DNA of 32,000 nt from Staphylothermus hellenicus DSM 12710. Lineage in GTDB: Archaea; Thermoproteota; Thermoprotei_A; Sulfolobales; Desulfurococcaceae. The position numbers and the translations under genes were made by a program. The notes under the pieces are model-generated. The model was not told the origin of the DNA and did not search any database. It saw only the letters and a list, made by a program, of their open reading frames with translations. Below, piece by piece: positions 7,055-31,170 of the stretch (within the stretch, counting starts at the first letter, position 1; each line of letters begins with the position of its first letter). The stretch lies in contig NC_014205.1 in the NCBI RefSeq assembly GCF_000092465.1, forward strand, positions 150,001 through 182,000, read 5' to 3'.

Positions 7055-7379
7055 CAACAACATCTTTATCGTTTCTTCCACATTTAACCGAAGCAGTTGT
7101 CTACGCTTACAATTACCTCTGCGGTCCTCAACTATGAGATACCTATATTTTACTATCTTGCTTAACCCTGGTGAATATAGAGATATAAGTCCCTGACTCC
7201 CCTTTTTCAGCCGTCATTTTAGGTCCATGCTTCTCCTCATAAATAATCCAGATTTAACAATTGGGAAACAAGATGTTTAAACATGAAAACCGCGATCAAC
7301 CTAGAATCACTACTCATTTAATTGCTTAATAAGTTGTTCAAGATCAGTATTAAGTAAAAAATATGAAAAACAGATAATA

Positions 7380-7869
7380 GAGGAAAACAGCTTATAATGG
7401 CTTAAAAGCTTATTGAAGCTATAGCCCAGCCGCTGCTGCACTAGCTATGTCTAATAGCGTGGGGTCTTATCTTTTGCGTAGATACCGCTTAGTAAACTTA
7501 TACACTATGTTCCTAGCTTGTCTAGGGGTTATCATGAATAGGGGTTCATGTTTGTATGGGATTCTCCTAGCATATCGCCTCATTATTTCCCAGAATAAGC
7601 TGCTTACTACTGGGACAATTCTAATGAATGTCTGCCTCTTCTTTTCCTGCCTAATCCTGACGGTTTTATTTTTTGAAATTAATGTCTTCAAGCCTTAGCT
7701 CCAACACTTCACCAATACGGCAGCCCGTATAAATCAATATGCTTACTAATGCTAGATCCCTAAGCCTATACCTAGCTCTATCAACATGATACTTAGCCTT
7801 CTTAACCGCTTCTAGGAGAGCCTCATATTTTGGAATGTCCTCGAGTTTGAAAGTTTTCGATCCCGCATC
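7380..7869 (-). pseudogene. Decayed tyrosine recombinase/integrase (N-terminally truncated, frameshifted, with in-frame stops)
   Basis: Manual minus-strand translation of 7869-7669 gives DAGSKTFKLEDIPKYEALLEAVKKAKYHVDRARYRLRDLALVSILIYTGCRIGEVLELRLEDINFKK*. This includes the TGxRxxE catalytic-Arg box. Reading continues after a frameshift in the A-run at 7664-7675 as track ORF 7467..7691 (...NKTVRIRQEKKRQTFIRIVP...ITPRQARNIVYKFTKRYLRKR). In yet another frame it gives IRPHAIRHS (HxxRH box) near 7434-7460. No start codon precedes 7869 (TAA at 7870-7872). Confidence 0.65.
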
Positions 7870-8251
7870 TTATACACTACAATTGGAAATTCTGATCAAG
7901 ATCCTTAATAAAGCTTGTTTCCCTTTTTGTCCAAAAACGAAATCCAAACCCCAAATATAACATAATAATAGATATAGAAGCTGTAGCTTTTGATTATCTA
8001 CCCCTTCATCTCAGACCTAATAAAAATTACTTCATATTGCATTTAAAGTGTTAAACGAGAAACAAAACTAATAGTTTGGGGGATCATTTTTGAAAAACCT
8101 GAGAATATGTTTATTGAGAAAAGAGAAGTTTCTCCATTTCTCCAAAACATCTATTATTTCTCTCCAGCTTTTATTACTTCTTATATAAATCTTATACAAA
8201 TTAATTTATATATTAGATATACCAAATAATATATGGTTGGAGGTAATCTAT

Positions 8252-8404
8252 ATGGGGAAAGAGTATCAGACTAGGTGGGAGAAAAGTCCTTCGCACGTAT
8301 CTCCTGACATAGGCAAGCATCATGACTGGGACCTTAGAGCCCGCGACGAGATTGGACGGAAAATTACTGATATAGTTCATCTCAGGGTAAAAGAAGAAGA
8401 ATAA
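8252..8404 (+). CDS. Possible small protein (50 aa), unknown function
   Basis: Below the track length cutoff. The ATG at 8252 is preceded by GGAGGT (8239-8244). Translation: MGKEYQTRWEKSPSHVSPDIGKHHDWDLRARDEIGRKITDIVHLRVKEEE*. It is locally less AT-rich than its flanks. No family recognised. Confidence 0.3.
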   Translation: MGKEYQTRWEKSPSHVSPDIGKHHDWDLRARDEIGRKITDIVHLRVKEEE

Positions 8405-8639
8405 GAACATAATTCTATTTTTTAATTTCTTTAGGGTATGATCCTTCCTAGCTTATAACATAGTTTATCCCATCTTTGAATATTCTCTCTTCAACATAAT
8501 GCCTGTTGAATAAATATTAAATAATCTCAGCCACTTTACCGGCACTCATACCAAGATCTTTGCCAGCTTACCTATCGTTAAATCCTGGCTTTTGATCTTT
8601 CACATAATATCCTTATGTCTTTATCGTTTAGATCTTACA

Positions 8640-8912
8640 CTAGGTTATAGCTATAAGCAGTACAAATAAATATATTAAGACGGAGGCTCCAATTGTTCCG
8701 ATTAGGGCTCCGATAATTATTAGTATTCTTAGCCATAGTCTTTTAATCTTCGATGCTGGTAGGGCTATAACTAGGATTATGAGGATCGAGATCAGTCTAA
8801 AGCTCCAAGGATAGGCTATAATCAGAAACGCAGTAATAGCTCCCATCACCATTGAGAACAGGAACCCAGCTATACCTAGCCCAATATTTGTTAATGCCCG
8901 TCCAATACTCAT
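8640..8912 (-). CDS. Small integral membrane protein (about 3 TM helices)
   Basis: 90-aa ORF that is almost entirely hydrophobic segments separated by short basic loops. No family recognised. Confidence 0.5.
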   Translation of the reverse strand: MSIGRALTNIGLGIAGFLFSMVMGAITAFLIIAYPWSFRLISILIILVIALPASKIKRLWLRILIIIGALIGTIGASVLIYLFVLLIAIT

Positions 8913-9129
8913 TTTACAGCCCTCAATATAAGTTTCGCATTAAAACTAATAGGATTATCAAACCCATTTCTTCAAGGTTATCCTCCAAGATTGAAATATG
9001 GTTCTCTAATGATTAAAATAAAATAGTTAAACAGGTTTAGCCGGGTATTTTTATGGCTTATATGTTTATGTTTGTTTTTGCATATATTTTGTGGAGAAAA
9101 ATGTTTTCCGGGAATAATGGGAGGGATTG

Positions 9130-10952: not shown

Positions 10953-11258
10953 TTGGGAGAGAACATGGGTTTAGGCTTGCTGCTCATTCTTTTAGGAGCT
11001 ATTCTCATCGTTATAGAGATAGCTACGCCTGGCTTCTTCATAGCTGTTCCAGGAACTATTCTTATCATTTATGGTGTATTACTCGCGTTGTTTCCAGAGC
11101 TTATCAATATCCCATATGTTCCCTGGATATTGTTCTTCCTATCTTTCCCCATAGGCTACATAACATATTTGATTTATAGGAAACTATCTCCTCCATCACC
11201 ACCTGTTACCGAGAGCTATGAGGGGTTGGTTAGTAAGGTAGGGGGTAGAAACATATAG
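10953..11258 (+). CDS. NfeD-like membrane protein, apparently C-terminally truncated (OB-fold domain missing)
   Basis: It has three TM helices, then the linker SPPSPPVTESYEGLVSKVGGRNI*. Short NfeD proteins normally continue from the GLVGKxG motif into an OB-fold domine of about 60 aa; here the frame stops about 5 codons in. It sits upstream of a stomatin fragment, the canonical NfeD partner. Confidence 0.6.
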   Translation: MGENMGLGLLLILLGAILIVIEIATPGFFIAVPGTILIIYGVLLALFPELINIPYVPWILFFLSFPIGYITYLIYRKLSPPSPPVTESYEGLVSKVGGRNI

Positions 11259-11300
11259 TGTTGCTTTCTTAATGTTTATATGTTGGTGTTTCAGGGTGGA

Positions 11301-12208: not shown

Positions 12209-12359
<151 letters not shown>

Positions 12360-12430: not shown

Positions 12431-12506
12431 GGGCCCGTAGCCTAGCCCGGATCAGGGCGCCGGCCTTCGGAGCCGGAGATCCCGGGTTCGAATCCCGGCG
12501 GGCCCG
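12431..12506 (+). tRNA. tRNA-Arg (anticodon UCG)
   Basis: Acceptor stem GGGCCCG/CGGGCCC. Anticodon stem CCGGC/GCCGG with loop CTTCGGA. T-arm CCGGGTTCGAATCCCGG. No encoded CCA. Confidence 0.9.
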
Positions 12507-13059
12507 CTAACTCCATTAGCTTGGTAGAATAGCTCGAAATACTCTGCCATTAGTTCTCGTTCTTGTGAAGCCTTGAAAACTCGCTCCTGATCTCAAAAAT
12601 GAGTATTTATAGTGAGTTCTGATTGGTATGGGAAAATCAATGTTCATCTCCAAACTAGTTAGGCTCAGTATTCTAGGCCTTGTAAAGGATAAGATTGGAT
12701 ACACGAGTACATGTATGGTTTTAGATACTGCAGAGAAGCATGCTAAGTTAGTTCTAAAGGAGAAGCAATTAATGATACTATTAACAGGTATCAATAAAGC
12801 CTGGTTCTAGAAAGGAATAGAGCTTCTAGTAAGAGTGTGAAGGGGGACTCCTGTTGCAGTGGAGGTCATAATACGTGGTCCTGCAAGAATATTCTCTTAA
12901 AGATCTTGGGTGTTGTTGCAAAGATTCTGAGTTATCTCTATAGGTGCAAGGTTATTATCTCCATTAGATTAAGAGAGGTTGGAGCGTTAATTTTAAATAA
13001 GGGTATTAAAATAAAAATAACAAATTTTAATATACACAATAAAGTATCGGTGTTTCCGA

Positions 13060-17627: not shown

Positions 17628-17652
17628 CTTTCAATTCTTTCTATGTTGTTAC
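17628..17652 (-). CRISPR. Orphan single CRISPR repeat (GTAACAACATAGAAAGAATTGAAAG on the minus strand)
   Basis: It is identical to the second repeat of the array at 21112-21136. It ends in ATTGAAAG, the crenarchaeal crRNA 5'-handle sequence. A leader-like sequence immediately precedes it on the minus strand. No further repeat is seen leftward. Confidence 0.7.
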
Positions 17653-17810
17653 TTTGGTTCGAATAAATTGCTACATTTTATTTTTTCTTCGAATCAGATA
17701 TATATGTTTTTCCATAATTGATCCATGCTTGATCCTGTTCGAACAATTATCTATAGACTTAATAGTATCTCTGACCCCCTTGAAGGGTTTGTGAAAAATA
17801 TTCGATTAGG
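17653..17810 (-). promoter_or_regulatory. CRISPR leader (left copy, minus-strand orientation)
   Basis: About 150 nt align by eye at roughly 80 percent identity to the reverse complement of 20885-21045. It abuts the orphan repeat, is AT-rich, and contains three TTCGAA palindromes. Confidence 0.6.
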
Positions 17811-18337
17811 CTACGTGGTTGTTTGTGTGTTGTTTTGGTAGGGAGACTGCTCGGCTATATATTTGCTACAAGGATAATTAATGATCATAGACTGGATGGA
17901 TTCCAGAAAGTATTAAAAAGCAATCATATCGGGTAAAAATAATTACGGAGTCATATAAATGAAACAAGAATAATTTCTCAACCCTCCTCCGATCAGGCTC
18001 TTCTAGAAAAGTTGTCTATATAGAAGCATTAATGACTCTCATGATCCTCTCTCACAGAGGATTTTGCAAACCCCTTTGGAGTATTTATTGATAACTTATC
18101 GGGTTCCCATATAATTTTCTCCATATTTTTTCGTGCTTTGAGCCCTCTAATCTTCTCCTCAGCAGATCCTTGAAGCTCTTATGGCCAATTAATTCTATCC
18201 TTGATATACTTGAAAGATGATGTAAAAATTGTTTCAAAGGGTTAAGACACTTAGATTTCTGGGATACTCTGTTTTTATATGTTAAAGTTTATTATCTTTT
18301 GTAGGGGCAGATCTATATTTGGAGGGTGTAGGAGGTT

Positions 18338-19246
18338 TTGTCTATTATTATTGATTCTGATAGGGGTAGGAGGGTAGCGGAGATCCTATATAATGCTTAT
18401 TATACCACTGGTATTTTCGGGTATAGATCTCCTCCAGAATCTGTTTTGCCTAAGGGTATGGTGAGGGGCTCGCTTCAACATGTTTTGTTTGTTACATTAA
18501 CGGTTTCCATTGATTATATGAGGGATGCTCAAGCATTATGGGAGAGTGCTAGGAGGACTTTCGAGGATCCTATGACTAGGTATTTATTTGATCCCAAGGC
18601 ACTATATGAAACACCCATAAATAAGATTATGAGGGATATGTTGAAATATGGTTTAGCTAAGAGGCCTAGGAAGGACTCATATATTTGGAAAACAGTTGGT
18701 GCAACTTTTTATAAGAAGTGGGGAGGGGATCCACGCAGTTTTCTTAGAAGCTGTGGATGGGATGCACCAACTATTCTTAAACGGTTAAAAAGTGATACCC
18801 ACCTAGATAGGGGTCGTCTGGTTCCTGATTATCCCTATCTTAGAGGGGATAAGATTGGTCCATTATGGTTGAGAATGCTCTGGGATATTGTTGGTGTTAA
18901 GGATTTGAGGAATTTGGATAAAGTCCCTATTCCCGTAGATGTACATGTTGCTAGAGCAACGCTTGCAACAGGTGTTGTTAGGGGGAGGTTTAGTGGGAGG
19001 CTTGAGGATTTATTCGAATATATTAGGAGGGCTTGGTTCCTAAGCGTTAAGGGGTTAAAGGCTGGGGATAGATCCATGATCGCATTGGATCTGGATGAGC
19101 CCCTGTGGCACTTATCCAAATATGGGTGTTCTAGGAGAGATAAGGATACAGGTTATTGTCCGCTACAAAGTTTTTGTGTTGTTAGAGAATATTGTGTTAA
19201 GGGGAGGATCTGGATAAATAATGGATATGTGGTGATGGATACATGA
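18338..19246 (+). CDS. HhH-GPD-superfamily-like (endonuclease III-like) protein with a C-terminal 4-Cys cluster; putative DNA glycosylase
   Basis: 302 aa with a TTG start after GGAGG. YLRGDKIGPLWLRMLWDIVGV is a hairpin-helix-like segment, and VPIPVDVHVARATLATGVVRG is an EndoIII-style DxHVxR block. The C-terminus LWHLSKYGCSRRDKDTGYCPLQSFCVVREYC resembles an Fe-S cluster loop with unusual Cys spacing. By eye only. Confidence 0.5.
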   Translation: MSIIIDSDRGRRVAEILYNAYYTTGIFGYRSPPESVLPKGMVRGSLQHVLFVTLTVSIDYMRDAQALWESARRTFEDPMTRYLFDPKALYETPINKIMRDMLKYGLAKRPRKDSYIWKTVGATFYKKWGGDPRSFLRSCGWDAPTILKRLKSDTHLDRGRLVPDYPYLRGDKIGPLWLRMLWDIVGVKDLRNLDKVPIPVDVHVARATLATGVVRGRFSGRLEDLFEYIRRAWFLSVKGLKAGDRSMIALDLDEPLWHLSKYGCSRRDKDTGYCPLQSFCVVREYCVKGRIWINNGYVVMDT

Positions 19247-19698
19247 AAACACTATGTATTGTTCCTTGTGGGAAGAGGAAGATTTGGGATAAATACCCAA
19301 ACAAGGGCCCTACTAAGGCAAGATACGTATACATAGGAGCTTTCGCGAAGAAGTGTAGGGAATACGCTGAGAAATTCTGTCCAAACTCCTGGGTTATCTT
19401 ATCGGCGAAGCATGGATTCTTGTTCCCAGACGATATAGTTCCTGGACCATACAATGTCAGCTTCAACGATAAAAAGACAAACCCTATATCCATAGAAGAG
19501 CTCAAAGCACAAGCACATATGAAGGGGCTTTACAGATATGATCGAATAATAGTCTTAGCCGGGAGAAACTATGCAGAAATAGTCAAAAAAGTCTTCTCAA
19601 ATAAAGAAGTTGTTACTCCACTAAGCAAATATAAGGGATTAGGCTATATGATGCAAAAACTAAATGAAGCAATAAGGAGAGGAGTACCGCTCCACTAA
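19243..19698 (+). CDS. YaaA/DUF6884-like small protein
   Basis: 151 aa. Its ATG overlaps the upstream stop (ATGA, 19243-19246). It has an N-terminal CIVPCGKRK and WVILSAKHGFLFPDDIVPGPYNVSF, matching my recollection of the DUF6884 pattern (C-S/G-x-x-K ... ILSAKYGL..P...I.PYD). Confidence 0.5.
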   Translation: MKTLCIVPCGKRKIWDKYPNKGPTKARYVYIGAFAKKCREYAEKFCPNSWVILSAKHGFLFPDDIVPGPYNVSFNDKKTNPISIEELKAQAHMKGLYRYDRIIVLAGRNYAEIVKKVFSNKEVVTPLSKYKGLGYMMQKLNEAIRRGVPLH

Positions 19699-19817: not shown

Positions 19818-20753
19818 TTGTTAAACCATTATTTTTGTATTAGGTGGTTAGTGTTGAATAAGATTTTAGTTTTCGGGATCATTTTTCTCCTAGTCTATGC
19901 TGAGGCTTCAGTATTTACTCCAATAAACAGTATGGTTACTGGTACGGATGTTTCGGGGGCTGGGAGGCCGAAGATATTGTTCATCTATTATTATTGGCTT
20001 CCAAACTATGGTCCAGCATATTGGTTTATACGTAATTTGTCAATGTATGGTGATGTAGTTTTTATCCGGGCAGATGCTCTAGCTAATCAATCGGATCAGT
20101 ATATTATGGATTATTTGAGACAATTCGACATATACGCTACCATTAATGCTGGTTATGGTCCCTGGCTTTGTCTGGTTGATTTTTGGAGTAAGTATCCGAG
20201 ACTAGTCAATATTATTAGGTTATTAGTTAGAGAGGAGGGGAAGAGTATTCTCGTCGTTGTAGCATCAACAAGTAATAGCCACCCAATCTCCGACATGGTT
20301 TATGCTGAATGTCTTGATACCCCGGATTATTGGATCAACTATGAGATCGCATCATCAAACATAACAGTGGGAATCAATAATATAACTGGTAGATCACTCC
20401 ACATACATCTCTACGGTGGAAAACCACTCATTATACTACCCAATAAACATGATTGGCTAAGTCGAAGAGCAGCATTAGCAGTATACGGATACTATGGGAA
20501 AGGAAAATACGCCGTATTAAGCATAGATCTATTCCAATCAAGCAACCACATAAGAGGAGACATTGAAAAACTATTATCAAACATAATACAATGGCTCACA
20601 AACAAGGAAACCCGAGAAAACAAAACAATCATAAACCCACCAATAGAAAACCTAACAATAACATCAACAATCCTCATAACACCACTAATAATCACCCTAA
20701 TAGGAGCATACATAATCAAACAACACAGAACAAACCCACATAAACAACCCTAA
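19818..20753 (+). CDS. Extracellular protein with signal peptide and C-terminal TM anchor, unknown function
   Basis: The likely start is the GTG at 19851, after AGGTGG (VLNKILVFGIIFLLVYAEA). The C-terminus ITSTILITPLIITLIGAYII followed by KQHR is a membrane anchor. Confidence 0.6.
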   Translation: MLNHYFCIRWLVLNKILVFGIIFLLVYAEASVFTPINSMVTGTDVSGAGRPKILFIYYYWLPNYGPAYWFIRNLSMYGDVVFIRADALANQSDQYIMDYLRQFDIYATINAGYGPWLCLVDFWSKYPRLVNIIRLLVREEGKSILVVVASTSNSHPISDMVYAECLDTPDYWINYEIASSNITVGINNITGRSLHIHLYGGKPLIILPNKHDWLSRRAALAVYGYYGKGKYAVLSIDLFQSSNHIRGDIEKLLSNIIQWLTNKETRENKTIINPPIENLTITSTILITPLIITLIGAYIIKQHRTNPHKQP

Positions 20754-20884: not shown

Positions 20885-21045
20885 TAGTCGAACAATTTAC
20901 ATTATACAAACCCGTCAAGGGGTCAAAGACACTATTTATCTTATAGTGAGCTGTTCGAACACGATCAAGCAAGGGATCAATTATAGAAAAGCATATATAT
21001 CGGGTTCGAAGAAAAATATAAATGTAACAATATATTCGAGGCAAT
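20885..21045 (+). promoter_or_regulatory. CRISPR leader (right copy, plus-strand orientation)
   Basis: Homologous to the reverse complement of 17653-17810. It directly precedes the first repeat at 21046 and contains TTCGAA at three positions plus variants. Confidence 0.6.
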
Positions 21046-21136
21046 GTAACAACCTAAAAAGAATTGAAAGCCTCTAAATCCATAAGCTTCCTGCAGCGAA
21101 CCTCCTCTTCAGTAACAACATAGAAAGAATTGAAAG
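21046..21136 (+). CRISPR. Vestigial CRISPR array: 2 repeats (25 nt) and 1 spacer (41 nt)
   Basis: Repeat 1, 21046-21070: GTAACAACCTAAAAAGAATTGAAAG. Spacer, 21071-21111: CCTCTAAATCCATAAGCTTCCTGCAGCGAACCTCCTCTTCA. Repeat 2, 21112-21136: GTAACAACATAGAAAGAATTGAAAG. The two repeats differ at 2 positions. Confidence 0.8.
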
Positions 21137-21258: not shown

Positions 21259-22602
21259 TTAAGCCTGCTTTATTTTTTCAATAATATTTTCTTCGGCTAT
21301 GTTTATGTGTTCATTGATGAGTTGGTCTAGTTCTTTTATTTTATTGATTTTTCTAAAGTTTAACGGTATTATTGCGACGTATTTGTTTTTGTCGTTTATA
21401 GGGATTGGTTTGTGTTGGTTGTTTGTTTTTTGTGTGTAGGTTGCGTTGTAGATTATTGCTCCTTTATCTACGTTGTACTCGTTCATGTATCCTAGTACTA
21501 TTCTTAGTTCTCTATAAATATCTTCTAAACTTCGTCTCTGCTTAGCATCCATAACAAATACTATTTCTTCACCGTCTCCCTTGTTAATTGTTATTGTTAT
21601 ATCTGGTCTACCAGCTTCAGGTCCCCCAATTACTTGTTTGTTTCTAGTAAGCCAGCTTTTATCGCTGAAGCCTTTGCTGTGATAGATCCTATAACTAATA
21701 TTTTCCCCGTTCTCCTCAACATTTATTTCTATAAATTCTCCCTTATGATCAACAATTATTTCCTTCACCCCTATCCGTTCTAGTTTTGATAGTAGAGCGT
21801 ATGTGGTTAGATAATGAGTGTAGATCTCGAATATTCTCTCAAGCTCTACTCCTACAATGGATCCTGTATGCTCAGGTTTTCCATGAACAGCGATCTCTTC
21901 CCCGATATTCATGATTGTTTGGAGATATTGTTTAAAACTTTTAGCGAGGAAATAATATCCATAGTTTCCGCGTTCTAGAACTGTGTCACATAGTTGTAGG
22001 AGTGAATCATAATCTTCTCTCTCAACTATACCTGCTAGTTCGGTTATCCAAGATACGCTACTATATGTTTCTCTTAGATCATCAAGTATTAAACCTATAA
22101 TCTTATTTAATAAATAGTTTTCAGCAGATACATTTTCTTCCAAATCCTCAATTATCTCCTTGATTTCCAAAGCAATATTCGCTAATAACAATGTCTCGGG
22201 TGAATCATATAATCTTTTATTAATACTTGATACTATTAAGAGTCTGCCACTACCGTATAGTGCTATTGTTTTTGGAAAATCTATTCTCCCCCTGGCAACA
22301 ATATCTATTCGATCCTCATAACTGGTTTCATAGATCAACTCTAACGGTATTCTTTTCAGAGTTTCTATAACATCTCTTATAGCTAGAACACGTGCAGTGA
22401 GCAAACCAGCCTTATAAGCATCCCTTAAAACACGGTCCTTTACTTCTCCAAAAAACTTTATAGGGTAACCCTTTACATAGCTGTAGAAGAGAAATAATCC
22501 TATAAGCCTAACAGTAACCATATACATGGATTCTAGGAGATCTTGATCTTTAGAACTTTGAGACAATATTACCGACCATTTCAATAAGTCCTTTATAATC
22601 AT
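21259..22602 (-). CDS. McrC-like PD-(D/E)xK nuclease subunit
   Basis: 447 aa, last gene of the operon and directly after the McrB-like gene. The C-terminal GRPDITITINKGDGEEIVFVMDAKQR fits a PD...(D/E)xK active site in the position seen in McrC. The track start overlaps the upstream gene by 53 nt; the internal Met at about 22527 (MYMVTV) is an alternative. Confidence 0.65.
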   Translation of the reverse strand: MIIKDLLKWSVILSQSSKDQDLLESMYMVTVRLIGLFLFYSYVKGYPIKFFGEVKDRVLRDAYKAGLLTARVLAIRDVIETLKRIPLELIYETSYEDRIDIVARGRIDFPKTIALYGSGRLLIVSSINKRLYDSPETLLLANIALEIKEIIEDLEENVSAENYLLNKIIGLILDDLRETYSSVSWITELAGIVEREDYDSLLQLCDTVLERGNYGYYFLAKSFKQYLQTIMNIGEEIAVHGKPEHTGSIVGVELERIFEIYTHYLTTYALLSKLERIGVKEIIVDHKGEFIEINVEENGENISYRIYHSKGFSDKSWLTRNKQVIGGPEAGRPDITITINKGDGEEIVFVMDAKQRRSLEDIYRELRIVLGYMNEYNVDKGAIIYNATYTQKTNNQHKPIPINDKNKYVAIIPLNFRKINKIKELDQLINEHINIAEENIIEKIKQA

Positions 22603-24268
22603 TTAGTTCTCCTGATTCCATAATCTTCTCTAATGCATCAATGTATTTCTTTGGAAGCATTATCTTAGATATCTCGGGATCAAGAATTGAAGCTAGAGAA
22701 CTAGATAATGCTTCATCAATAACATTCTTGATACTCTTCGAAGGATTCATGCTAATAAGATTATATGCATCAATAGCAGATTCAATTATATAAGATATTC
22801 CTAGAGGGAAGTCATTATTAATAAATATTCTATAGATTCTCGTTAACTCCTCAGCAACATCGCTAAGCCTCTGAGTATCAACATTACTGATCTCTTTAAG
22901 TACGTTGCTAGCTTTTCTCGAGACTATCTTCTTTAAAACTTCTTCATTAGCATTAGAGATTTTCTGCGGGAATACTCTTACAATATGGAATCTTCTAAGT
23001 AATGCATAACCTAGTGTGAACAAATGGGTTATATCCCACGTGTTAATTGTTGCTACTATTCTAAATCCCCAAGGCAACGTATTGTTTGCTTTAACATGTT
23101 TTAGTATTGTCTCAGCAGCATCATCTCTATCATCATAGTTTTTAATCTCATCGATAAGTGACTGGGGCAACTTCCATTGGCTAGGATCTATGCCTGGGTA
23201 TATTGTGAAGAATTCTGCTAAAACCTTATCAGCTTCGCAACGATTCAGTTCATCGATAAGCAATAATACACCTTTAAACCCCTTATTCTCACCAGACTTC
23301 TTATCCTCATCAGCTCTACTAATGTATTCAATATGTTTTGCAAGAGCTGATAGAAATACACCACTCTTCCACTTGAATCCTTTAGAAGAAATAATCGGTC
23401 CACCTATGAAATCATAGCGGGTCCACGTAGAAGAAGCAGTAGTGCTCACCAATTCATAATTGAGATATTTAGCTAGAAGCTCTGCTAAATACGATTTACC
23501 AGTACCCGGCGGCCCAACTAATAATAAGTGCTTACCCTTATTATATCCAGCAACAAGATCATCAAGGATCTCTTCAGAATAAAAACCATCATTATCGATC
23601 ACATGATTTTTGAACCCTTCATAATCAATAAGTATTGGATGCGAAGGTTTTGGCTTATGATATTCTTCTTTCATCCCCATAGAATGTATCTTCATGTACT
23701 CACTCTCCCTAAGGGATGCTAGGTACCAGCCCTGTTTTATGATATTCTCACTAATATTCTTGGTCTCTCCATAATTTATAGGATCTTCATATTCTTGGAA
23801 GTTAGATAACCTTAGTAAAAAGAAAGAAATACCGCTTATATTTCCTATTCTTTTTCTTATTTTTTCTTCTGCCCTTTCTAAATATTGATTTAAATCTATA
23901 TTTTTCTGAGTAGAGCTGTTTTTCTGGAGAAGACGCGTAAGCTCATTTCTGAGTTCATACCAGGTATATTCTTTAATGTTCTTATTATCTTCTTCTCGAA
24001 GAATCGATCTACCTATAAAAGCTTTTTTGACTTCTCCTTTCTTACTGTGAATATATATAGCTCTTGACCCCACATAATGTATGATTGTTAATTCACTGAA
24101 TTGTTTAAGGGATTTTATAATGGCATTATATTCTGCTGCATGACGACCCTTTATCGGCCCCCATAAAGCCACTCCTATATGAGCAGGAATAGGCAAACTC
24201 CAATTGTTTATTTCAACCCAGTATTTTGAAGGTTCTAATCTTTTATAGCTATACAAAATATTTTTCAC
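22550..24268 (-). CDS. McrB-like AAA+ GTPase/ATPase with a divergent N-terminal domain
   Basis: 572 aa. It has Walker A LLLVGPPGTGKSYLAELLA, Walker B plus the McrB-type NR motif VLLLIDELNRCEADKVLAEFF, then FRIVATINTWD and GYALLRRF. The first roughly 200 aa are unrelated to the ATPase core. Confidence 0.8.
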   Translation of the reverse strand: MKNILYSYKRLEPSKYWVEINNWSLPIPAHIGVALWGPIKGRHAAEYNAIIKSLKQFSELTIIHYVGSRAIYIHSKKGEVKKAFIGRSILREEDNKNIKEYTWYELRNELTRLLQKNSSTQKNIDLNQYLERAEEKIRKRIGNISGISFFLLRLSNFQEYEDPINYGETKNISENIIKQGWYLASLRESEYMKIHSMGMKEEYHKPKPSHPILIDYEGFKNHVIDNDGFYSEEILDDLVAGYNKGKHLLLVGPPGTGKSYLAELLAKYLNYELVSTTASSTWTRYDFIGGPIISSKGFKWKSGVFLSALAKHIEYISRADEDKKSGENKGFKGVLLLIDELNRCEADKVLAEFFTIYPGIDPSQWKLPQSLIDEIKNYDDRDDAAETILKHVKANNTLPWGFRIVATINTWDITHLFTLGYALLRRFHIVRVFPQKISNANEEVLKKIVSRKASNVLKEISNVDTQRLSDVAEELTRIYRIFINNDFPLGISYIIESAIDAYNLISMNPSKSIKNVIDEALSSSLASILDPEISKIMLPKKYIDALEKIMESGELNDYKGLIEMVGNIVSKF

Positions 24269-24711
24269 CTCTTATCTATTTCTAAAAGTATTCTTAAAGC
24301 CCTAGCTGGTCTAAGTATTCCCGGATATTTTCTTTCTCTAAATCTCTCAACAATTATTCCCGCCCAATACTTTAGATCTAGATATGTAAGTGTTTTAACC
24401 GCTTCCATTGCTTGGAGTTTTTTCTTATAAGTTCTTAAATTGCTAGTGATAACGGCATAGATTAATACTTTTGCATAAGTTTCCCAATTATCCGTTGTAA
24501 AAGTCATAATTTTTCTGCCGCCTTTCTTTTTGAAACCGCTTCTAAGAGCATATTGTATTAGTAATTGTGGATTACATCTAATTTTTACTTCTAATACTCC
24601 TCTACTCCTAGTTGTGCCAGCGTAGAATCTTGAAATTCCCATGTTGTTTCTAGAATAGATTACTAGGTAATATAGAGGCTTAGCTTCATCATCAATAGTA
24701 GAGCTCATCAC
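24265..24711 (-). CDS. Small operon protein, unknown function (occupies the slot of the small DUF3780-type partner in DUF1156/DUF499 clusters)
   Basis: 148-aa ORF with 4-nt overlaps to both neighbours (24708-24711 and 24265-24268), which implies translational coupling. It is basic, and I cannot place its family from sequence alone. Confidence 0.55.
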   Translation of the reverse strand: MMSSTIDDEAKPLYYLVIYSRNNMGISRFYAGTTRSRGVLEVKIRCNPQLLIQYALRSGFKKKGGRKIMTFTTDNWETYAKVLIYAVITSNLRTYKKKLQAMEAVKTLTYLDLKYWAGIIVERFRERKYPGILRPARALRILLEIDKR

Positions 24712-27700
24712 TTCCTCCTCACAATTGTAACTATTATATCGGCGTATCTAATGTATTTGTCAAGTATTCTTTTAAGAGTTGAATTGATAGTTATCTCTTT
24801 TGGAAATTCTGCTTCGAAGCTTCCCTCGACAAATATATTTGAACCCATAGACTCTAGTAGTTCGCTAACTACGTCATAGACTATTGCTGGATCAGCTTGT
24901 TTAAATAAAACATCGCTCACTCCATACTCTCGGCTTTTCACGTGGAGCTCCATTTTATTGACAATGAACACCTTCTCATCCGGTTTACTTAGTAATTCAG
25001 TTAATTTGTTAATGAGCTCCAGTATATCTCTATAATTCTTATTGCTAATTGAGCTCTTAATACTGATTAAAACATCTCCTTCTTCAAGAACCCCTGGTTC
25101 ATGAATATCAATAACACTAGTCTTAGGCTTAACAGTGATTATTTCCTCGTATGAGTTACCATTATCATCGATCGCCCTAATCGTTATCAATGTTTGTTGC
25201 CTGATCCTTGAACCATTTATTTTAATCCACGTCTTAAACGGTACTTGTCCTTCAAGAACTCCATGATCAGTTACTGCATCACTAGACACGGTGATTTTAA
25301 CATTGCCACCATAGTCTCCTAGAGGTTGAGCCTCAATTCTCACATCTACGCTTTCATCAGGTGAGATCTCAATATATGATGGCTCAACTACTAGGTTTAT
25401 CCCTGTTTTCAGAATCTTTTCCTCCTTAACAATGAAGCCGTCTCTAAGAATTATTTCCCAGTCTGGAAACTTTTCGATATCCTTAATTGAATACCTCTTA
25501 TTCCTGTATACAACGTAGTAGTTTAACTTGAGAATACCATTATCTATTCTTGTTCCGTCGTTTTCTTCTATATCGCTTTTGATCTCCTCTAGTATCTCCT
25601 TTAGCGCGTCTCGCCAATGCATTATAATGAAGCTTTCTTGTATTCTTGTTGGTTCTTCTCCTCTGTCCTTATCAGTAAATGATGTAATATCGTTTGGTGA
25701 ATATATGCGTTTAAAGTATCTTCTATTGAACTCGTCTATTAAGGCGATTTCTAGGTTTAATACACCCTCCTTGATGGCATCTTTAATTCTATCTTCTCTT
25801 ACCATAGGTAGTTCGGGCCTTGTCTTAAAGACATTGATAACGTCTCCAACACTGATCTTTCTCCCAGGTTTTATTTCAATTTCAACCTTGCTTAAATAAG
25901 TCTTTAATGATTCAAAATTTAATGATCTAACTATTTTACCAATGCTTGGAGAGCTTAGTGCTGAGACAACTTTTTCACTAATTGATTTATCAGATGATGT
26001 AGCATATGTTTTCTCAACAATTCTTCTAGAATCTTTAACTGCTGGATAATATATTTGATCAAAGAAGTTAAGAATATTTGTTAATAAGATGTTTTCGATC
26101 ATTCTTTTCTGGTACGATGCAATACTTCTCTCAATATCCTTGATCTCCTTGGCATAACCACTATACAGCTCATTTATTCTATCCATAATTATTTCTGCCG
26201 CTCTCAGAAGTGCTTGATACTCGAGAAGGGATTCGAGTTTATCCTTTGTCGAAATAGTTACTGCTACAACGGTATTAGCGTGTGTTCTCTCAATTCCTCT
26301 AAACTTATAGATTAGCTCTTCGATCTCCTTTGGCTTATTATATAGTATAGCAACCAGCTTATAGGAACTGCTATCAGGAACCTCAGCCTCCGACGCGTAT
26401 CTATAAACCGATATATTCTTTGCATCGAATATTTCAGCATATCTAAATCGTTCCATAGAATAGACACTAGCTTCTCGGGCTCTGCCTACTTCGATTAAAC
26501 GTGAAGTCATTAATTTATGTATATTCTCCATAAGCAAGTTCTCGACATGGCTCCTGTTTTCTTCTAAAATCTTTTTAGCTTCTCTTCTAATCCATTCCTT
26601 TATAGATGCAATTCTAGAATACCAGTATCTATCGGTTGATTCATCATAGTGTAGGAAGACAGTATAGTTACTGATCTTGATCTCTGATAATGCATCTACT
26701 ATATCTACCGGCTTATACCTATTAGATTCGAAGAATTTTGGTTCATAAACCATTTGAACGATTTCTTTGCTTGTTGGAAACACTGGTTCTGCTTTAAGAC
26801 TATCATAGGGATAAGTTGATAAGAATATTGTTCTTAGAATTATCTTTATTAGGTTCTTCCTTTCTGATTCTTTAGGGATTTTGTTATCCAGTGCAACTAT
26901 TTCGTCAGCATATATTCTCTGGTAATCACTATAATCTCCCATGAAGAATAGGCCTTCAACACCGAGCTCGACAGGGTCAATATGCCACGGCATAATCAGT
27001 ACTGGATCCTCGTTGCTCCTCAATAGTTTCCTTAACAGTAGCCTAGATATCCTCATTAAGAACCTGGTCCTATTACCAGTAACTCTTTCAGCGATTTCCC
27101 TGAGCACACTGATATAGGAGGGGTGGAAGGGATAGGTCTTTTTAATGTCTTCTCTGAGCTTACTAGTATCTCCAAATACCTCCTTGAACTCGTTATAAGT
27201 ACTTATAAGTTTACGGATCTCATTTTTTGCCTCATCAACTCTGACCTCACTGAAAAGCCTCTTCTTTACAACATTGAAGAGTTCAGTACTCCTAGATATT
27301 GGGGCATATACATTGCCTGCTACACGTAATAGAGCATCCAATAGATCTCTTACAAATTCGCTTATCCTCTTATACCTTGGCTGAGGCTCTATTCCTCCAG
27401 GCTTCTTTTCCGCAGCAATAGTAATTACTAATACATTGTTTGTTGACTCAACTGCTTGCGCTAGTCTATCAAAGAACCTAACTACCTCGCTCACATATCC
27501 CTCCTTATTCTTATACTTTGATGAAAGAATAGAATCTATATAGTCAAGGATCTCGTCTACAAGAATAACAACTTTGCGGCCTTGCAAAAGTTTTTTGAGA
27601 ACACTTTGATCAGGGCATGTCTCGTTTTTATCATCCCTCTCCACAAGCTCGTATCTCTTCAATCTATCTGCTAGATAGCCCCATAAAGTCTTTATTTTAC

Positions 27701-28127
27701 GCGATCCCCCCTCTAATGGCTTTATCGGGCTCGGAGCTAATCTAGAATCCTTACCATATATAACTACTACTTCAACACCCTTAACATTCCTATATAACTT
27801 ATAGACTTCATCTGAGAGGAGATACGTGTAGCTTGGATTTAAAACAGCGTGATAAATAGTTAGTAATGTATGTGTCTTACCTCCGCCGAAAAAAGCTATT
27901 ATTGGATAAACCTTACGTCCCTTCCCCTCAGTTAGAGTATTCCCTATCTCCGATAGAATAGTCTTCATACTATCCGTAAGATATGTTCTTTCAAAAAACT
28001 CTCTGGGATCCATATATATTCTAGGAGCCGTACCATAAACAACCTCATAGATCTCAGGCGCTAGTTTCTCGTCAAAACTAGGATCTAGAACATCCTCCCT
28101 TACAGAAACATGTTGTTTAAAACCCAA
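24708..28127 (-). CDS. Large P-loop ATPase, DUF499/COG1483-like
   Basis: 1139 aa. The N-terminal ...YGTAPRIYMDPREFFERTYLTDSMKTIL...VYPIIAFFGGGKTHTLLTIYHAV matches the DUF499 N-terminal and Walker A signature as I recall it. Walker B-like VVILVDEILDY follows. Confidence 0.75.
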   Translation of the reverse strand: MGFKQHVSVREDVLDPSFDEKLAPEIYEVVYGTAPRIYMDPREFFERTYLTDSMKTILSEIGNTLTEGKGRKVYPIIAFFGGGKTHTLLTIYHAVLNPSYTYLLSDEVYKLYRNVKGVEVVVIYGKDSRLAPSPIKPLEGGSRKIKTLWGYLADRLKRYELVERDDKNETCPDQSVLKKLLQGRKVVILVDEILDYIDSILSSKYKNKEGYVSEVVRFFDRLAQAVESTNNVLVITIAAEKKPGGIEPQPRYKRISEFVRDLLDALLRVAGNVYAPISRSTELFNVVKKRLFSEVRVDEAKNEIRKLISTYNEFKEVFGDTSKLREDIKKTYPFHPSYISVLREIAERVTGNRTRFLMRISRLLLRKLLRSNEDPVLIMPWHIDPVELGVEGLFFMGDYSDYQRIYADEIVALDNKIPKESERKNLIKIILRTIFLSTYPYDSLKAEPVFPTSKEIVQMVYEPKFFESNRYKPVDIVDALSEIKISNYTVFLHYDESTDRYWYSRIASIKEWIRREAKKILEENRSHVENLLMENIHKLMTSRLIEVGRAREASVYSMERFRYAEIFDAKNISVYRYASEAEVPDSSSYKLVAILYNKPKEIEELIYKFRGIERTHANTVVAVTISTKDKLESLLEYQALLRAAEIIMDRINELYSGYAKEIKDIERSIASYQKRMIENILLTNILNFFDQIYYPAVKDSRRIVEKTYATSSDKSISEKVVSALSSPSIGKIVRSLNFESLKTYLSKVEIEIKPGRKISVGDVINVFKTRPELPMVREDRIKDAIKEGVLNLEIALIDEFNRRYFKRIYSPNDITSFTDKDRGEEPTRIQESFIIMHWRDALKEILEEIKSDIEENDGTRIDNGILKLNYYVVYRNKRYSIKDIEKFPDWEIILRDGFIVKEEKILKTGINLVVEPSYIEISPDESVDVRIEAQPLGDYGGNVKITVSSDAVTDHGVLEGQVPFKTWIKINGSRIRQQTLITIRAIDDNGNSYEEIITVKPKTSVIDIHEPGVLEEGDVLISIKSSISNKNYRDILELINKLTELLSKPDEKVFIVNKMELHVKSREYGVSDVLFKQADPAIVYDVVSELLESMGSNIFVEGSFEAEFPKEITINSTLKRILDKYIRYADIIVTIVRRK

Positions 28128-28158
28128 GGCTTTTATCCCCCTATCATATATATTTTAT

Positions 28159-31100
28159 TTACTTTATGTAGTTATCAATCGTTCTATAACTAGGCTTAGC
28201 CGGGCCACATTTAACCCCCATATATTCAAGTATTCTCATAGAAAGTTGCTGCTCTGGATCGCCTTCGAAATAGCTGCAGATAACATATGCTATACCCTTA
28301 GCTTCATTAATAAAGCTAGGCCCACCTGGTTGTTCTTGAAGCTTCGAAACAAGTTTCTCAAATGTGCTTTTATCATATTTAGAAGCATAGTATTCGAGAA
28401 CGTGAAGTGCATCAATACTGTTAGTTATCCTAGGCTTATCCGGATTAATTCCTCTACGCTTCTCCAAGAAAATCCTCAACTTACTGGGTTCAATACTTAG
28501 TGGCGAATTCAATACATACTCTTTTCTACTAGTAGATGCCGCTCGCTTCTCAATCACTATCCTCTTCTTAACCATATCACCCACGTTTATACCTGAAGCA
28601 ATAGATAATATAGTTATACTGCTAGCATCCAGTTTCTTCTCCTTAGAAAGAAGTTTACGAGCAGTCTCAGGATCTCTTAAGAACACTAGCTTGAATAAGA
28701 GATAGAATAGAGCTTCTGGAGAACTAACATTGAACGTAGACATACCAACCAAGTAATCTATTAATCCGCGAGCAGCGGCAGGAAACACTATTTCACGTAT
28801 AATTCTGCCAACAGACTCAATACCTCCCTCGTTATCCTTAATCCCCAAGAAGCTACTAAGCTTATCCCTCTTCTCAGGAAACACTATTTTATCATAGCTT
28901 GTTGCAACTTCTAAAACCCTGCCCATCACGCCTATGAAAGCATCTAATCCTCTATGTTGTTTCCAAACATCCCCTGCGTAGCTTTTAGCAGCTTCCACCG
29001 CTTCGCGATATACATCGCTGAAAACACCTACTCGATCACTATGAGATCTTTTTCTCCAAACAATTACCAAGCTAGTATCTAAGCTACGCTTACCCCTCTT
29101 AACAATAGATTGTTTACTCTCTGTATCAAGAGGCCATGTAGCAGTTATCTTAAAGCCTCCTCGAGCCCATCCAGCCCACAATAGATCTCTCCAAGCATCA
29201 GGATCAGTATGATTATAATATGTAACAAGTAATCCATCATCCTTCAAGTGCTCCCTCATAGCTATGAAAGAATCACCGAGAAGCTCTAAGTAGCGTTCAT
29301 AAGCATATTTTTTAGCATCCTGATTATTTCCAACATAATCCCTGTAGCGTCCAGGATTAAAACTAGCCTCACGCTTAGCAAAAGATTCCCACTGAGTGCT
29401 AATAGGCTTCCAAACAGCACCAACACGCCTAAAAAACAGGTCCTGGTGAAACCTCGGAGCAAGCCTACCATTCTCAACATCACTCAAAGCACGCTTCAAC
29501 CAAATGAAATAAAAATCACTAAGCTCAGCATAAGGAACATCATCACGATAAGGAGGATCAGTAACGATCAAATCAAACTTCTCATCAGAGGCTACATTGT
29601 TAAACACAGCAGCATCATCCAGCAAAACGTCAACCCTATACTTATTACTAGGAATAACTGAAACGAGGTACAACAAGCTCCTAATAAGAGCATTTAATGA
29701 CCTACTCCAAGATCCAGCAAGGTTGTTAATGGGTCTAGCATCCACCCAATTCCAACTCATAGCTATACCTCTTACCGACATGCTCGATGCGATCTTGAAC
29801 CATGTACTATCCCATATATTAACTATAGAATTCAAATATACGAGCTTACATAACGCTATTGCTAAGTATGTTGTTACTGCTTCTGCGTACCTGAATGCCT
29901 CTTCCCTGGTCCAGCCTTTTTTTAGCTTTTCTTCCTCTATTTTCTTGCCAACTTCTCGTATTAGCTTGACTATTTTGATTAAGGTTAGGAGTTGTCGTGG
30001 ATTAAATAGCTTATAGAATTTATCAATACCCCATACAATTGTATGATAGGTGGATGAACAGTATGGCTCTATTGGCTCAGTTGGTAGGTCTGGGTCTTTC
30101 CATATTTGTTTTAGTTTTTCTAGTGCTTTCCATAGTTTTTCTTGGTCTTCTTGTGTTGCCGGTGCGAATTCTATTTCTTTACCCCTAGTTTTTACCTTGA
30201 CTAGTATTCTGGGTCTTGCAGGTGCTTTTTTGAGTTCTTCTAGGCTTGTTTCTCCGGACAAGTATTTTTCGAGGAGTGTGTTCCATTGTTTTAGAGCATA
30301 TTTGGGGTAGAATATGACTTTTTTTCTGAGTGATGAGGGTAGGTTTGATTTTTCGGGATAGTGTTGTCCGGTTTCTGGGTTTATGTATCCTATTTTGTTT
30401 TTGCAGTATAGGCATGTTGCTTTCTCTCTTCTCGCATCAATGTTTTTCTCTGGGACTTCGAGCTCTATGGTTTGTTTTCCTCTAGGTATGATTATTTTGT
30501 TTGATTTAATCTTATCTTTGTCAAGGAAGGGGATTTTGTATTCTTTATTTATATCTACTACCTCAATATCTACTCTATCGTTTCTTTTCACTGGCTTCAT
30601 ATAGGCTATTCTAGTATACTTATTATTTTTCTTCACTCTTGCCAGCCAATAGTTTCCTATTAGTGGTGTATATCTTTTACACCGGGGGCATTGAATCTCC
30701 CATGTTCCTATGTATATTGCTGTATCCTCGTCGTATAGTTCTTTTAGATCCTGATCATTTTTTAATTGTTCAATAATCCATTTACCATATTTTTCCACAT
30801 CTTTAACTAAATTTTTCCATTTAGGATCGCTAACTGCTTTTAGAGGATATTCTAGGACTGCTTTCAAGAATACGGCTGCTGTTGGTAATAGTTCTACTGC
30901 TATTACTTTTCCCACGCCTAGTCTTAGTGCTTCTAGGGGTATTGAGCCGAAGCCAGCGAATGGATCTAGCAGACTTGTTTCTTTAAACAATTTCTTTAAA
31001 CCAGCTAGTTCTCCTTGAAAAACCGGGTTAAACCTGTGCGGTGTTTTCTTGTCTAGTCTTAGAATGTATTGTTTAAATGCTTCTGGATCGATCTTGTCTG

Positions 31101-31170
31101 CTGGTATTATTGATCCCGCTATTACTGCTCTTGCTGTTATTAATGGTTTACGTGTCCACCAGAAAACCAT
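28159..31170 (-). CDS. Zn-ribbon-containing N6-adenine-type DNA methyltransferase, DUF1156/COG1743-like
   Basis: 1003 aa from the track ATG.
- DUF1156-type N-terminus: FWWTRKPLITARAVI.
- SAM motif I: LLDPFAGFGSIPLEALRLG.
- Zn ribbon: CPRC...CLYC.
- Motif IV: LIVTDPPYRDDVPY.
The frame stays open and family-like for 35 more codons upstream (to 31275) but has no canonical start there. Confidence 0.85.
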   Translation of the reverse strand: MVFWWTRKPLITARAVIAGSIIPADKIDPEAFKQYILRLDKKTPHRFNPVFQGELAGLKKLFKETSLLDPFAGFGSIPLEALRLGVGKVIAVELLPTAAVFLKAVLEYPLKAVSDPKWKNLVKDVEKYGKWIIEQLKNDQDLKELYDEDTAIYIGTWEIQCPRCKRYTPLIGNYWLARVKKNNKYTRIAYMKPVKRNDRVDIEVVDINKEYKIPFLDKDKIKSNKIIIPRGKQTIELEVPEKNIDARREKATCLYCKNKIGYINPETGQHYPEKSNLPSSLRKKVIFYPKYALKQWNTLLEKYLSGETSLEELKKAPARPRILVKVKTRGKEIEFAPATQEDQEKLWKALEKLKQIWKDPDLPTEPIEPYCSSTYHTIVWGIDKFYKLFNPRQLLTLIKIVKLIREVGKKIEEEKLKKGWTREEAFRYAEAVTTYLAIALCKLVYLNSIVNIWDSTWFKIASSMSVRGIAMSWNWVDARPINNLAGSWSRSLNALIRSLLYLVSVIPSNKYRVDVLLDDAAVFNNVASDEKFDLIVTDPPYRDDVPYAELSDFYFIWLKRALSDVENGRLAPRFHQDLFFRRVGAVWKPISTQWESFAKREASFNPGRYRDYVGNNQDAKKYAYERYLELLGDSFIAMREHLKDDGLLVTYYNHTDPDAWRDLLWAGWARGGFKITATWPLDTESKQSIVKRGKRSLDTSLVIVWRKRSHSDRVGVFSDVYREAVEAAKSYAGDVWKQHRGLDAFIGVMGRVLEVATSYDKIVFPEKRDKLSSFLGIKDNEGGIESVGRIIREIVFPAAARGLIDYLVGMSTFNVSSPEALFYLLFKLVFLRDPETARKLLSKEKKLDASSITILSIASGINVGDMVKKRIVIEKRAASTSRKEYVLNSPLSIEPSKLRIFLEKRRGINPDKPRITNSIDALHVLEYYASKYDKSTFEKLVSKLQEQPGGPSFINEAKGIAYVICSYFEGDPEQQLSMRILEYMGVKCGPAKPSYRTIDNYIK

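Follow-up and report, generated by a model that had tools for sequence, protein, structure and literature searches.

Immunity based on DNA glycosylases has only recently been recognised, and the examples described so far, which include PabI-type enzymes, Brig1 and Dag, are single proteins and come mostly from bacteria. Dag1 and Dag2 are helix-hairpin-helix (HhH) superfamily glycosylases that restrict phages with 7-deazaguanine in their DNA (bioRxiv 10.1101/2025.10.29.685425). DUF6884 is also already on record, as a phage-defence candidate in PADLOC; the family is defined by its CxxxK and LSAxxG motifs, which have been proposed by Pfam curators as the active site (PMC11701544). YfjM, the DUF6884 protein of Bacillus subtilis, is enriched on DNA baits with an abasic site or a ribonucleotide, and an AlphaFold 3 model shows it flipping a base (PMC11701544). 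DpdC, an enzyme of the YaaA family, converts preQ0 to ADG within duplex DNA. In this work, we focus on two overlapping genes in a 32,000-nucleotide (nt) stretch of the genome of the archaeon Staphylothermus hellenicus DSM 12710 (NC_014205.1, positions 150,001 to 182,000 of the forward strand; hereafter the window), which encode a glycosylase-like protein of the HhH-GPD superfamily (302 amino acids (aa), here called H) and a DUF6884 protein (151 aa, here called D). A literature search found no described pairing of an HhH/Fe-S glycosylase with DUF6884, and no link between YaaA and an HhH glycosylase. The reading that we favour, and to which we give about an even chance, is that the pair is a mobile two-component system acting on DNA bases, probably an undescribed defence system that works by base excision from foreign DNA. 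The features of the pair are as follows, in window coordinates.

18338..19246, forward strand: H gene, 302-aa HhH-GPD-superfamily Fe-S-type glycosylase-like protein, TTG start (open reading frame, homologs, AlphaFold2 model, Foldseek, profile)
18851..18853, forward strand: codon of K172 in LRGDKIGPLWLRML, helix-hairpin-helix lysine that is a candidate for Schiff-base (lyase) catalysis (alignment)
18938..18940, forward strand: codon of D201 in IPVDVH, catalytic Asp of HhH-GPD enzymes, Asp in 56 of 57 family members
19127..19195, forward strand: four-Cys cluster C264-x9-C274-x5-C280-x5-C286, presumed [4Fe-4S] site, aligned to endonuclease III (EndoIII)
19243..19246, forward strand: ATGA overlap of the H stop with the D start, translational coupling (table of open reading frames and sequence)
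19243..19698, forward strand: D gene, 151-aa DUF6884 (YaaA-like) protein, ATG start, Pfam PF21818
19267..19281, forward strand: CxxxK motif C9-G-K-R-K13 of D, putative active site, C9 and K13 invariant in 32 homologs
19399..19416, forward strand: LSAxxG motif L53-S-A-K-H-G58 of D, with S54, A55 and G58 invariant

H and D form a single operon and function as one unit; they are inherited together and translationally coupled, and in some cases fused. Both open reading frames (ORFs), together with their overlap, were recovered where a preliminary description of this DNA had placed them. In a D-seeded set of 80 metagenome loci with a close DUF6884 gene, 74 of them informative, an H gene lies upstream of D at 54, and the identical 4-nt overlap recurs at 45 of these 74 independent loci, so that the coupling is not due to chance. 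When species genomes were instead seeded with H (68 loci), an adjacent DUF6884/YaaA-like gene was present at about 44 of the roughly 55 loci with an intact H; it usually lies downstream with the 4-nt overlap, sometimes upstream, and is sometimes fused. The adjacency persists in branches in which H is 35–44% identical to that of the window, and eight of the ten long H-family members are fusions of H with DUF6884, in either order and in several lineages. In addition, the pairwise identity matrices of H and D are correlated (r 0.77, Mantel p 0.001, 58 pairs). Co-occurrence, which the preliminary description had proposed as a check, is thus evident in the shared overlap, the fusions and the matched divergence of the two proteins. 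No third conserved gene was found, since all-versus-all clustering of 1170 neighbour ORFs gave small clusters only, and the 311-aa gene downstream of the pair in the window (19818-20753) is a singleton that encodes a membrane or secreted protein and lies outside the module. At some loci, decayed DUF6884 remnants of 54–72 aa follow an intact H, and elsewhere H itself is broken into fragments (L001/L011, 8964-9128; L015, 4296-4514; L027, L035, L065 and L070); these decayed copies fit an accessory cassette that is gained and lost.

The TTG start of H is credible, because 33 homologs of nearly equal length begin at the same point as its N-terminus MSIIID; direct reading of the sequence places an AGGAGG at 18330-18335. 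Most of the 657 homologs returned by the homolog search are 302 aa long. An AlphaFold2 model of H, for which 34 homologs were used as input (predicted local distance difference test (pLDDT) score 88.7, predicted template modelling (pTM) score 0.85), together with Foldseek, assigns H to the two-domain, all-helical HhH-GPD fold with its helix-hairpin-helix. Among structures in the PDB, the best Foldseek matches are to Qng1/DUF2419 (E 1e-7, template modelling (TM) score ~0.55), and the next are EndoIII (7e-4), MutY and MIG, with E values from 7e-4 to 1e-2; the Foldseek probability is 1.0 against Qng1, EndoIII, MutY, MIG and MagIII. In a viral structure library, the best match to the model is a haloarchaeal virus 'endonuclease III' (E 8e-9, TM 0.62/0.77), followed by a weak match to a phage amino-acid:DNA transferase domain protein (E 0.055).

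Family models recognise H poorly. Pfam gave no match to HhH-GPD or EndIII_4Fe-2S at E<=1, and its AGOG model reached 12.4 bits (E 0.1), over residues 195-233 only and below the membership cutoff of 26.1; the NCBIfam AGOG equivalog scored 14.6 bits against a threshold of 383, and neither PADLOC nor PHROGs matched H. Searches of PDB sequences with H alone or with a profile of its close homologs returned nothing useful, and only a profile built from 57 diverse H-family representatives, 28–61% identical to the window protein, reached Pyrobaculum AGOG (1xqo, E 1.4e-7), with D201 on the catalytic D172, and EndoIII (1p59, E 1.2e-4), with the four cysteines of H aligned with the Fe-S ligands.

The residues expected of such an enzyme are largely conserved. 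The EndoIII-like blocks that the preliminary description had picked out are present, as is the cysteine spacing that it had read from the translation. The segment IPVDVHVARATL holds D201, which aligns with D172 of AGOG and with the Asp of the EndoIII VDTH motif, and H therefore possesses the catalytic Asp of the superfamily. At the position of K172, 49 of the 57 family members have Lys and six have Arg. In H, this residue is found in KIGPLWLRML, 29 residues before the Asp, and the comparable segment of Thermococcus AGOG, KTVVFSVKMF, lies 32 residues before its Asp; judged by this manual alignment and the spacing, K172 is a candidate equivalent of the catalytic Lys of AGOG and would fit the role of a Schiff-base lysine. 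The cluster cysteines are conserved in 48–53 of the 57 members. Their spacing, C-x9-C-x5-C-x5-C, is not the C-x6-C-x2-C-x5-C of EndoIII, and with the lysine position also deviating, H falls outside endonuclease III/Nth; by alignment, the cluster is homologous to the EndoIII Fe-S site despite its unusual spacing, and it presumably binds metal. The fold matches, the 57-member profile and the conserved Asp, Lys and Cys residues therefore identify H as a new, unannotated branch of the HhH-GPD superfamily, in which a catalytic core resembling that of AGOG occurs together with an EndoIII-like cluster of unusual spacing, and which is covered by no curated family.

D is a clear member of DUF6884 (61.2 bits, E 1.5e-16, cutoff 30), and its homologs (n=503) show 62–73% identity. 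The preliminary description had attributed to it a core common to YaaA and DUF6884 proteins; the DUF6884 part of this claim stands, whereas the YaaA/DUF328 model (PF03883) gave only a weak match below its cutoff (17.6 against 29.6 bits, E 0.003), and D is related to YaaA at the level of the fold only. A model of P0244, a natural fusion of H with DUF6884 (pLDDT 93.6, pTM 0.72), confirmed both domain folds, and its C-terminal DUF6884 domain matched Escherichia coli YaaA (5caj) with a Foldseek probability of 1.0 and an E value of 0.04. The Foldseek comparison proposed in the preliminary description thus places H in the HhH-GPD superfamily and the DUF6884 domain of the fusion beside YaaA. The same domain (residues ~320-466) also gave weak Foldseek matches, with probabilities of 0.5–0.9, to glycosylases of the SMUG1/uracil-DNA glycosylase (UDG) fold, and to AF0587 (2q07); this hints that the 'cantaloupe' fold is possibly kin to base-flipping UDG-like enzymes. 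PADLOC matched D to the phage-defence candidate PDC-M57A (E 2.4e-17). Besides this component A, no other PDC-M57 model was matched by H, by the 57 H-family members or by the alternative partners of DUF6884, and a literature search found no paper describing PDC-M57. The glycosylase was considered as the second component of PDC-M57, and this was not borne out, as no glycosylase partner had a PADLOC match. With PHROGs, only D of the pair was matched, to a family of unknown function.

In a pattern-seeded scan, 68 of 185,579 species genomes yielded close relatives of H, in unrelated bacterial and archaeal phyla and at 55–68% identity; the count covers close relatives only and is a lower bound. Both H and D have hundreds of homologs of fixed length at 60–73% identity in unrelated lineages, and the hosts include Methanomethylicia, Methanoliparum, Methanosarcinales, Argoarchaeum, Hodarchaeota, TA06, WOR-3, Petrotoga, Nitrospirae, Chloroflexi, Bacteroidales and others. 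Gene neighbourhoods were surveyed with Pfam over three genes on either side at 45 loci. There is no conserved synteny, because the 135 neighbouring genes match 148 different Pfam families, of which the commonest are N6_Mtase (4), Phage_integrase (4), N6_N4_Mtase (3) and helicase/nuclease families, with DNA methylases amounting to 7 together. Elsewhere, where the preliminary description had proposed to look, the contexts are often defence islands. The pair of a TA06 bacterium lies with GmrSD, a type I restriction-modification system, integrase fragments and a second methylase, and that of Petrotoga with a type ISP-like enzyme. Locus L166 contains DUF499-HEPN, TIR, PLD, ADP-ribosylglycohydrolase, DUF6361 and NERD-UvrD genes, and at L168 a WYL regulator lies directly upstream, with a prophage on one side and ERCC4 and a 1408-aa helicase on the other. 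The pair spreads horizontally, occurs sporadically in bacteria and archaea, and is often found in defence islands or mobile elements.

A housekeeping AGOG/Nth reading of H was rejected because of its sporadic occurrence and heterogeneous neighbours, and the preference of the preliminary description for a defence context over housekeeping repair is supported; H is not a ubiquitous single-copy repair glycosylase, and the two genes are co-conserved. A viral origin or an anti-defence role of the pair was also rejected, because a pattern-seeded scan of the IMG/VR viral contigs found no H homolog and PHROGs matched only the DUF6884 protein.

DUF6884 is not confined to H. At 20 of the metagenome loci, a close DUF6884 gene occurs without H, and the identifiable upstream genes are translationally coupled or closely adjacent to it; the close DUF6884 homologs coupled to such partners show 56–67% identity. 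The partners comprise a true AGOG-family glycosylase (80–100 bits), with or without DUF7664 at its N-terminus, the McrC subunit (DUF2357 + PDDEXK_7) of an McrBC system, a PDDEXK_1 nuclease, a HEPN-like protein and a DUF7669-MazE protein. A constant small subunit combined with exchangeable effectors that damage nucleic acids is an architecture typical of defence systems, and the exchange of effectors speaks for DNA, the substrate common to them, rather than the partner protein as the target of DUF6884.

Two further associations of the module were observed. A Metallophos + SMC_N/AAA_23 (SbcD/SbcC-like) gene pair starts ~210–520 nt after DUF6884 in three unrelated contexts (L080/L082, 10771-14615; L083, 8673-12511; L167, 11874-16296), two of which follow McrBC-DUF6884 and one Fe-S glycosylase-DUF6884; the association may be coincidental, or it may be functional, for example if DNA ends that are damaged or blocked by protein are processed. 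Small, recently named N-terminal domains also recur on the glycosylase or DUF6884 proteins of the module, namely DUF7664 (with AGOG; L142, L155, L158), DUF7662 (P0248, P0252) and DUF7669 (P0069, L132), and a gene that joins DUF7669 to a MazE-like domain immediately precedes DUF6884 at one locus. These domains may be DNA-binding or regulatory add-ons.

In the mechanism that we propose, H would flip and excise a non-canonical base from invading viral or plasmid DNA and would probably also nick the strand through K172, and the outcome would be restriction by base excision, with no need for a self-modification gene. DUF6884 would serve as the constant DNA-binding partner, which may recognise or convert the target base, as DpdC does with preQ0, or may capture or process the abasic site left by H, for which the YfjM pull-down offers a precedent. 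As to the substrate, our guess by analogy is a modified purine, for example a derivative of 7-deazaguanine, because AGOG and Qng1 are the nearest characterised relatives and because Dag acts on 7-deazaguanine phages. We take defence by excision of non-canonical bases as the best reading of the pair; the antiviral function, the substrate and the part assigned to DUF6884 are inferred.

Several observations weigh against this reading. The main counter-argument is that 60–70% identity across domains is unusually high for a defence gene, the Dag families being highly variable. About one fifth of H genes have no recognisable partner, and PADLOC matched none of the 57 H-family members and none of the six AGOG-type partners scanned. 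K172 is off the canonical G-x-G-x-K position of EndoIII and OGG1, the hairpin of H reading LRGDKIGP. The best structural match, Qng1, acts on a nucleotide and not on DNA, and the 7-deazaguanine guess rests on the nearest relatives. Moreover, the defence contexts are individual loci, not an enrichment against a background, and ordinary metabolic neighbours occur at many loci, for example an ABC transporter in Petrotoga and cobalamin genes in Methanoliparum, where the partner has decayed.

A broader view would make DUF6884 the constant subunit of an unrecognised, modular two-gene class of anti-invader systems, with Fe-S HhH glycosylases, AGOG, McrC/PD-(D/E)XK and HEPN proteins as effectors, and the window pair as a version that performs two-step base-excision restriction. 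In this version, DUF6884 would recognise or chemically unmask a hypermodified viral base, or trap an abasic site, after which base removal and strand nicking would fall to the Fe-S glycosylase-lyase, in archaea as well as in bacteria. We put this view forward tentatively, as possible but clearly less probable than the favoured reading of the pair itself as a defence system.

The strongest of the competing explanations, which we regard as unlikely, is a mobile base-excision repair cassette, in which H removes a spontaneous lesion (a purine that is oxidised or deaminated, or a methylated base, the product of neighbouring methyltransferases, that is deaminated) and DUF6884 processes or shields the abasic site, so that the host benefits and invaders are not targeted. 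Repair enzymes such as Mig.MthI and Vsr reside beside restriction-modification systems and set a precedent for such an arrangement. The nearest sequence relatives of H, AGOG and EndoIII, are repair enzymes, and the enrichment of YfjM on abasic-site DNA agrees with such a role; very high conservation is more typical of repair genes than of arms-race genes, DNA methylases are the commonest neighbours, and many hosts are thermophiles or anaerobes. However, at most loci no methylase lies nearby, horizontal transfer has produced a sporadic distribution, and synteny is not conserved. McrC, PD-(D/E)XK and HEPN-like effectors, with which this DUF6884 subfamily is also coupled, are no partners for repair, and the pair has TIR, PLD, GmrSD and WYL-regulator genes around it.

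It is improbable, in our judgement, that the pair is instead a DNA modification system, with H as a base or group transferase and DUF6884 maturing the base in the manner of DpdC, to mark host DNA. DpdC is indeed a DNA base-modifying enzyme of the YaaA family, the phage amino-acid:DNA transferase match implies that the fold has been recruited for DNA hypermodification, and Qng1, the best PDB match, handles a 7-deazaguanine nucleotide. Against this, the transferase similarity is weak, the catalytic Asp/Lys and Fe-S architecture of H is that of an excision enzyme, and no conserved restriction partner is present to read the mark; no preQ0, precursor-biosynthesis or TGT family is found among the 25 commonest of the 148 neighbour families, in which no search was aimed at them.

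Slightly less probable again is a toxin-antitoxin or addiction cassette that spreads selfishly, with the glycosylase as a genotoxic toxin and DUF6884 neutralising it or repairing the damage. Stable fusions in both orders are hard to square with a labile antitoxin, a single conserved small protein is unlikely to inhibit HhH, PD-(D/E)XK and HEPN folds by direct binding, and the invariant CxxxK and LSAxxG of DUF6884 point to an enzyme; partnerless H genes also persist intact in several genomes. These points outweigh what speaks for such a cassette, namely its compact two-gene form with overlapping ORFs, its wide horizontal spread and high conservation, the pairing of DUF6884 with several potentially toxic effectors (glycosylases, nucleases and HEPN-like proteins) and the DUF7669-MazE gene upstream of DUF6884 at one locus. 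The least probable explanation, a Qng1-like salvage pair acting on free queuosine-like nucleosides or nucleotides and not on DNA, draws on the Qng1/DUF2419 matches (E 1e-7) and on the distant H-family member P0382, which is fused to a Q_salvage domain in a housekeeping context. Against it, the TM score to Qng1 is only ~0.55, the significant sequence-profile matches are the DNA glycosylases AGOG and EndoIII, H has the Fe-S cluster motif and hairpin Lys that characterise glycosylases binding DNA, the DUF6884 partner family binds DNA, P0382 lacks the Cys cluster, and the genomic surroundings abound in defence genes, not in genes for tRNA modification. Overall, both the settings in defence islands and the pairing with McrC, nuclease and HEPN proteins are explained less well by the rivals than by a defence system.

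The surroundings of the pair in the window include remnants of clustered regularly interspaced short palindromic repeats (CRISPR) and a large defence operon, as follows.

17628..17724, reverse strand: relic CRISPR unit, one repeat (17628-17652) with ~72 nt of leader-like sequence, expected direction of transcription leftwards, away from the pair
20974..21136, forward strand: relic CRISPR unit, leader-like sequence (20974-21045), then repeat, 41-nt spacer and repeat (21046-21136)
21259..31170, reverse strand: neighbouring defence operon, context outside the pair, with DUF1156 methyltransferase, DUF499 ATPase, 148-aa, AAA_5 McrB-like and 447-aa genes
28159-31170, reverse strand: DUF1156 methyltransferase
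24708-28127, reverse strand: DUF499 ATPase
22550-24268, reverse strand: AAA_5 McrB-like ATPase
21259-22602, reverse strand: 447-aa protein

The 25-nt repeat, GTAACAAC[A/C]TA[G/A]AAAGAATTGAAAG, occurs at 17628-17652 on the reverse strand and at 21046-21070 and 21112-21136 on the forward strand, where none would be expected by chance; two of the three copies reach the gathering score of 35 of Rfam CRISPR-DR27, and the unit at 17628 scores 42 bits. With the repeat included, the two sides share a 97-nt inverted repeat (I1, 86% complementary), in which ~72 nt of leader-like sequence lie on the inner side of the repeat; therefore, the pair and the 311-aa gene lie in a 3.4-kb segment flanked by two leader-repeat units that point outward. 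The preliminary description had placed the pair between CRISPR leaders, which holds insofar as such units lie on both sides; they are array remnants and no active locus. With one repeat on one side and two on the other, a single spacer and no cas gene, the locus is a relic, and no Cas family was found among the window ORFs of >=100 aa that were scanned, so that it does not qualify as a CRISPR-Cas locus. In many crenarchaeal loci, this position between leaders is occupied by the adaptation cas cassette. The location of the pair in the usual place of that cassette suggests replacement or decay of a CRISPR-Cas locus.

The restriction-like operon reported nearby in the preliminary description was confirmed as a DUF1156/DUF499/McrB-like operon. 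Pfam identified DUF499 (E 0), DUF1156 and AAA_5; the NCBIfam matches, to anti-phage DUF499 and DUF1156 models and to McrB, remained below the respective cutoffs, and PADLOC gave MTase_II (E 2e-237), HmaC and HmaB. The McrB-like gene (572 aa) overlaps the 447-aa gene, which has no family match, and the two (21259-24268) are appended to DUF1156-DUF499; the 447-aa protein may be an McrC analogue. At other loci, members of D's DUF6884 subfamily are directly coupled to McrBC systems.

Other parts of the window contain tRNA genes at 6967-7054, 12209-12356 and 12431-12507, of which that at 12209-12356 is long, probably intron-containing and detected by Rfam only. A stretch of ~2 kb that is poor in ORFs (7100-9100) follows the tRNA-Leu gene, and a 51-nt inverted repeat (84%; 228-278 and 11242-11292) spans 11 kb. 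Together, the tRNA genes, the ORF-poor stretch and the inverted repeat may be the trace of an integrated element. Genes for a CDP-archaeol synthase and a Clp1-type kinase are archaeal markers in the window, as is a CRISPR repeat that ends in ATTGAAAG.

If the favoured reading of the pair as a base-excising defence system is true, it would add to glycosylase immunity a two-component architecture and an Fe-S effector, and would give DUF6884 its first functional setting. It would also provide a handle on the DNA modifications of archaeal viruses, of which little is known so far. The cassette, 1.36 kb in size, is highly conserved and occurs in hyperthermophilic archaea as well as in bacteria; being small, conserved and present in both domains, it is directly testable and might yield thermostable enzymes with specificity for modified bases.

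In comparison with known systems, H shares with EndoIII, MutY and MIG the fold, a C-terminal four-Cys cluster and the VD-x-H Asp motif, and differs from EndoIII in the spacing of the cluster, in a Lys that is off G-x-G-x-K and in being ~90 residues longer. Qng1/DUF2419 (7u07, 7ulc, 7ugk) resembles H in size and in a Lys/Asp pair at similar spacing, whereas it acts on a free nucleotide, possesses neither an Fe-S cluster nor a DUF6884 partner, and is 13–16% identical with a TM score of ~0.55. On the side of D, YaaA is a distant relative of DUF6884 with the same fold and DNA-binding cleft, and DpdC shows that this fold can convert a modified base in duplex DNA; D is ~100 residues shorter and below the YaaA cutoff, and no dpdA or dpdB lies nearby. 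Dag and Brig1 resemble H in being mobile and located in defence islands; they destroy phage DNA with modified bases. Brig1, in contrast to H, has a UDG fold, whereas Dag belongs to the HhH superfamily and has a Lys/Asp catalytic pair, with some members clustering structurally near AGOG; by their published description, the Dag proteins are highly variable single-gene systems of Vibrio integrons, for which no Fe-S cluster or DUF6884 is mentioned. AGOG (PF09171; 1xqo, 7olb) has the HhH-GPD fold, the IPVD-x-[HR]-x-AR block with the catalytic Asp and a Lys ~30 residues upstream in common with H, and true AGOG proteins are likewise coupled to close DUF6884 homologs. Unlike AGOG, H carries an EndoIII-like four-Cys cluster, a different N-terminal half and a DUF6884 partner gene, and it is sporadic and mobile rather than housekeeping.

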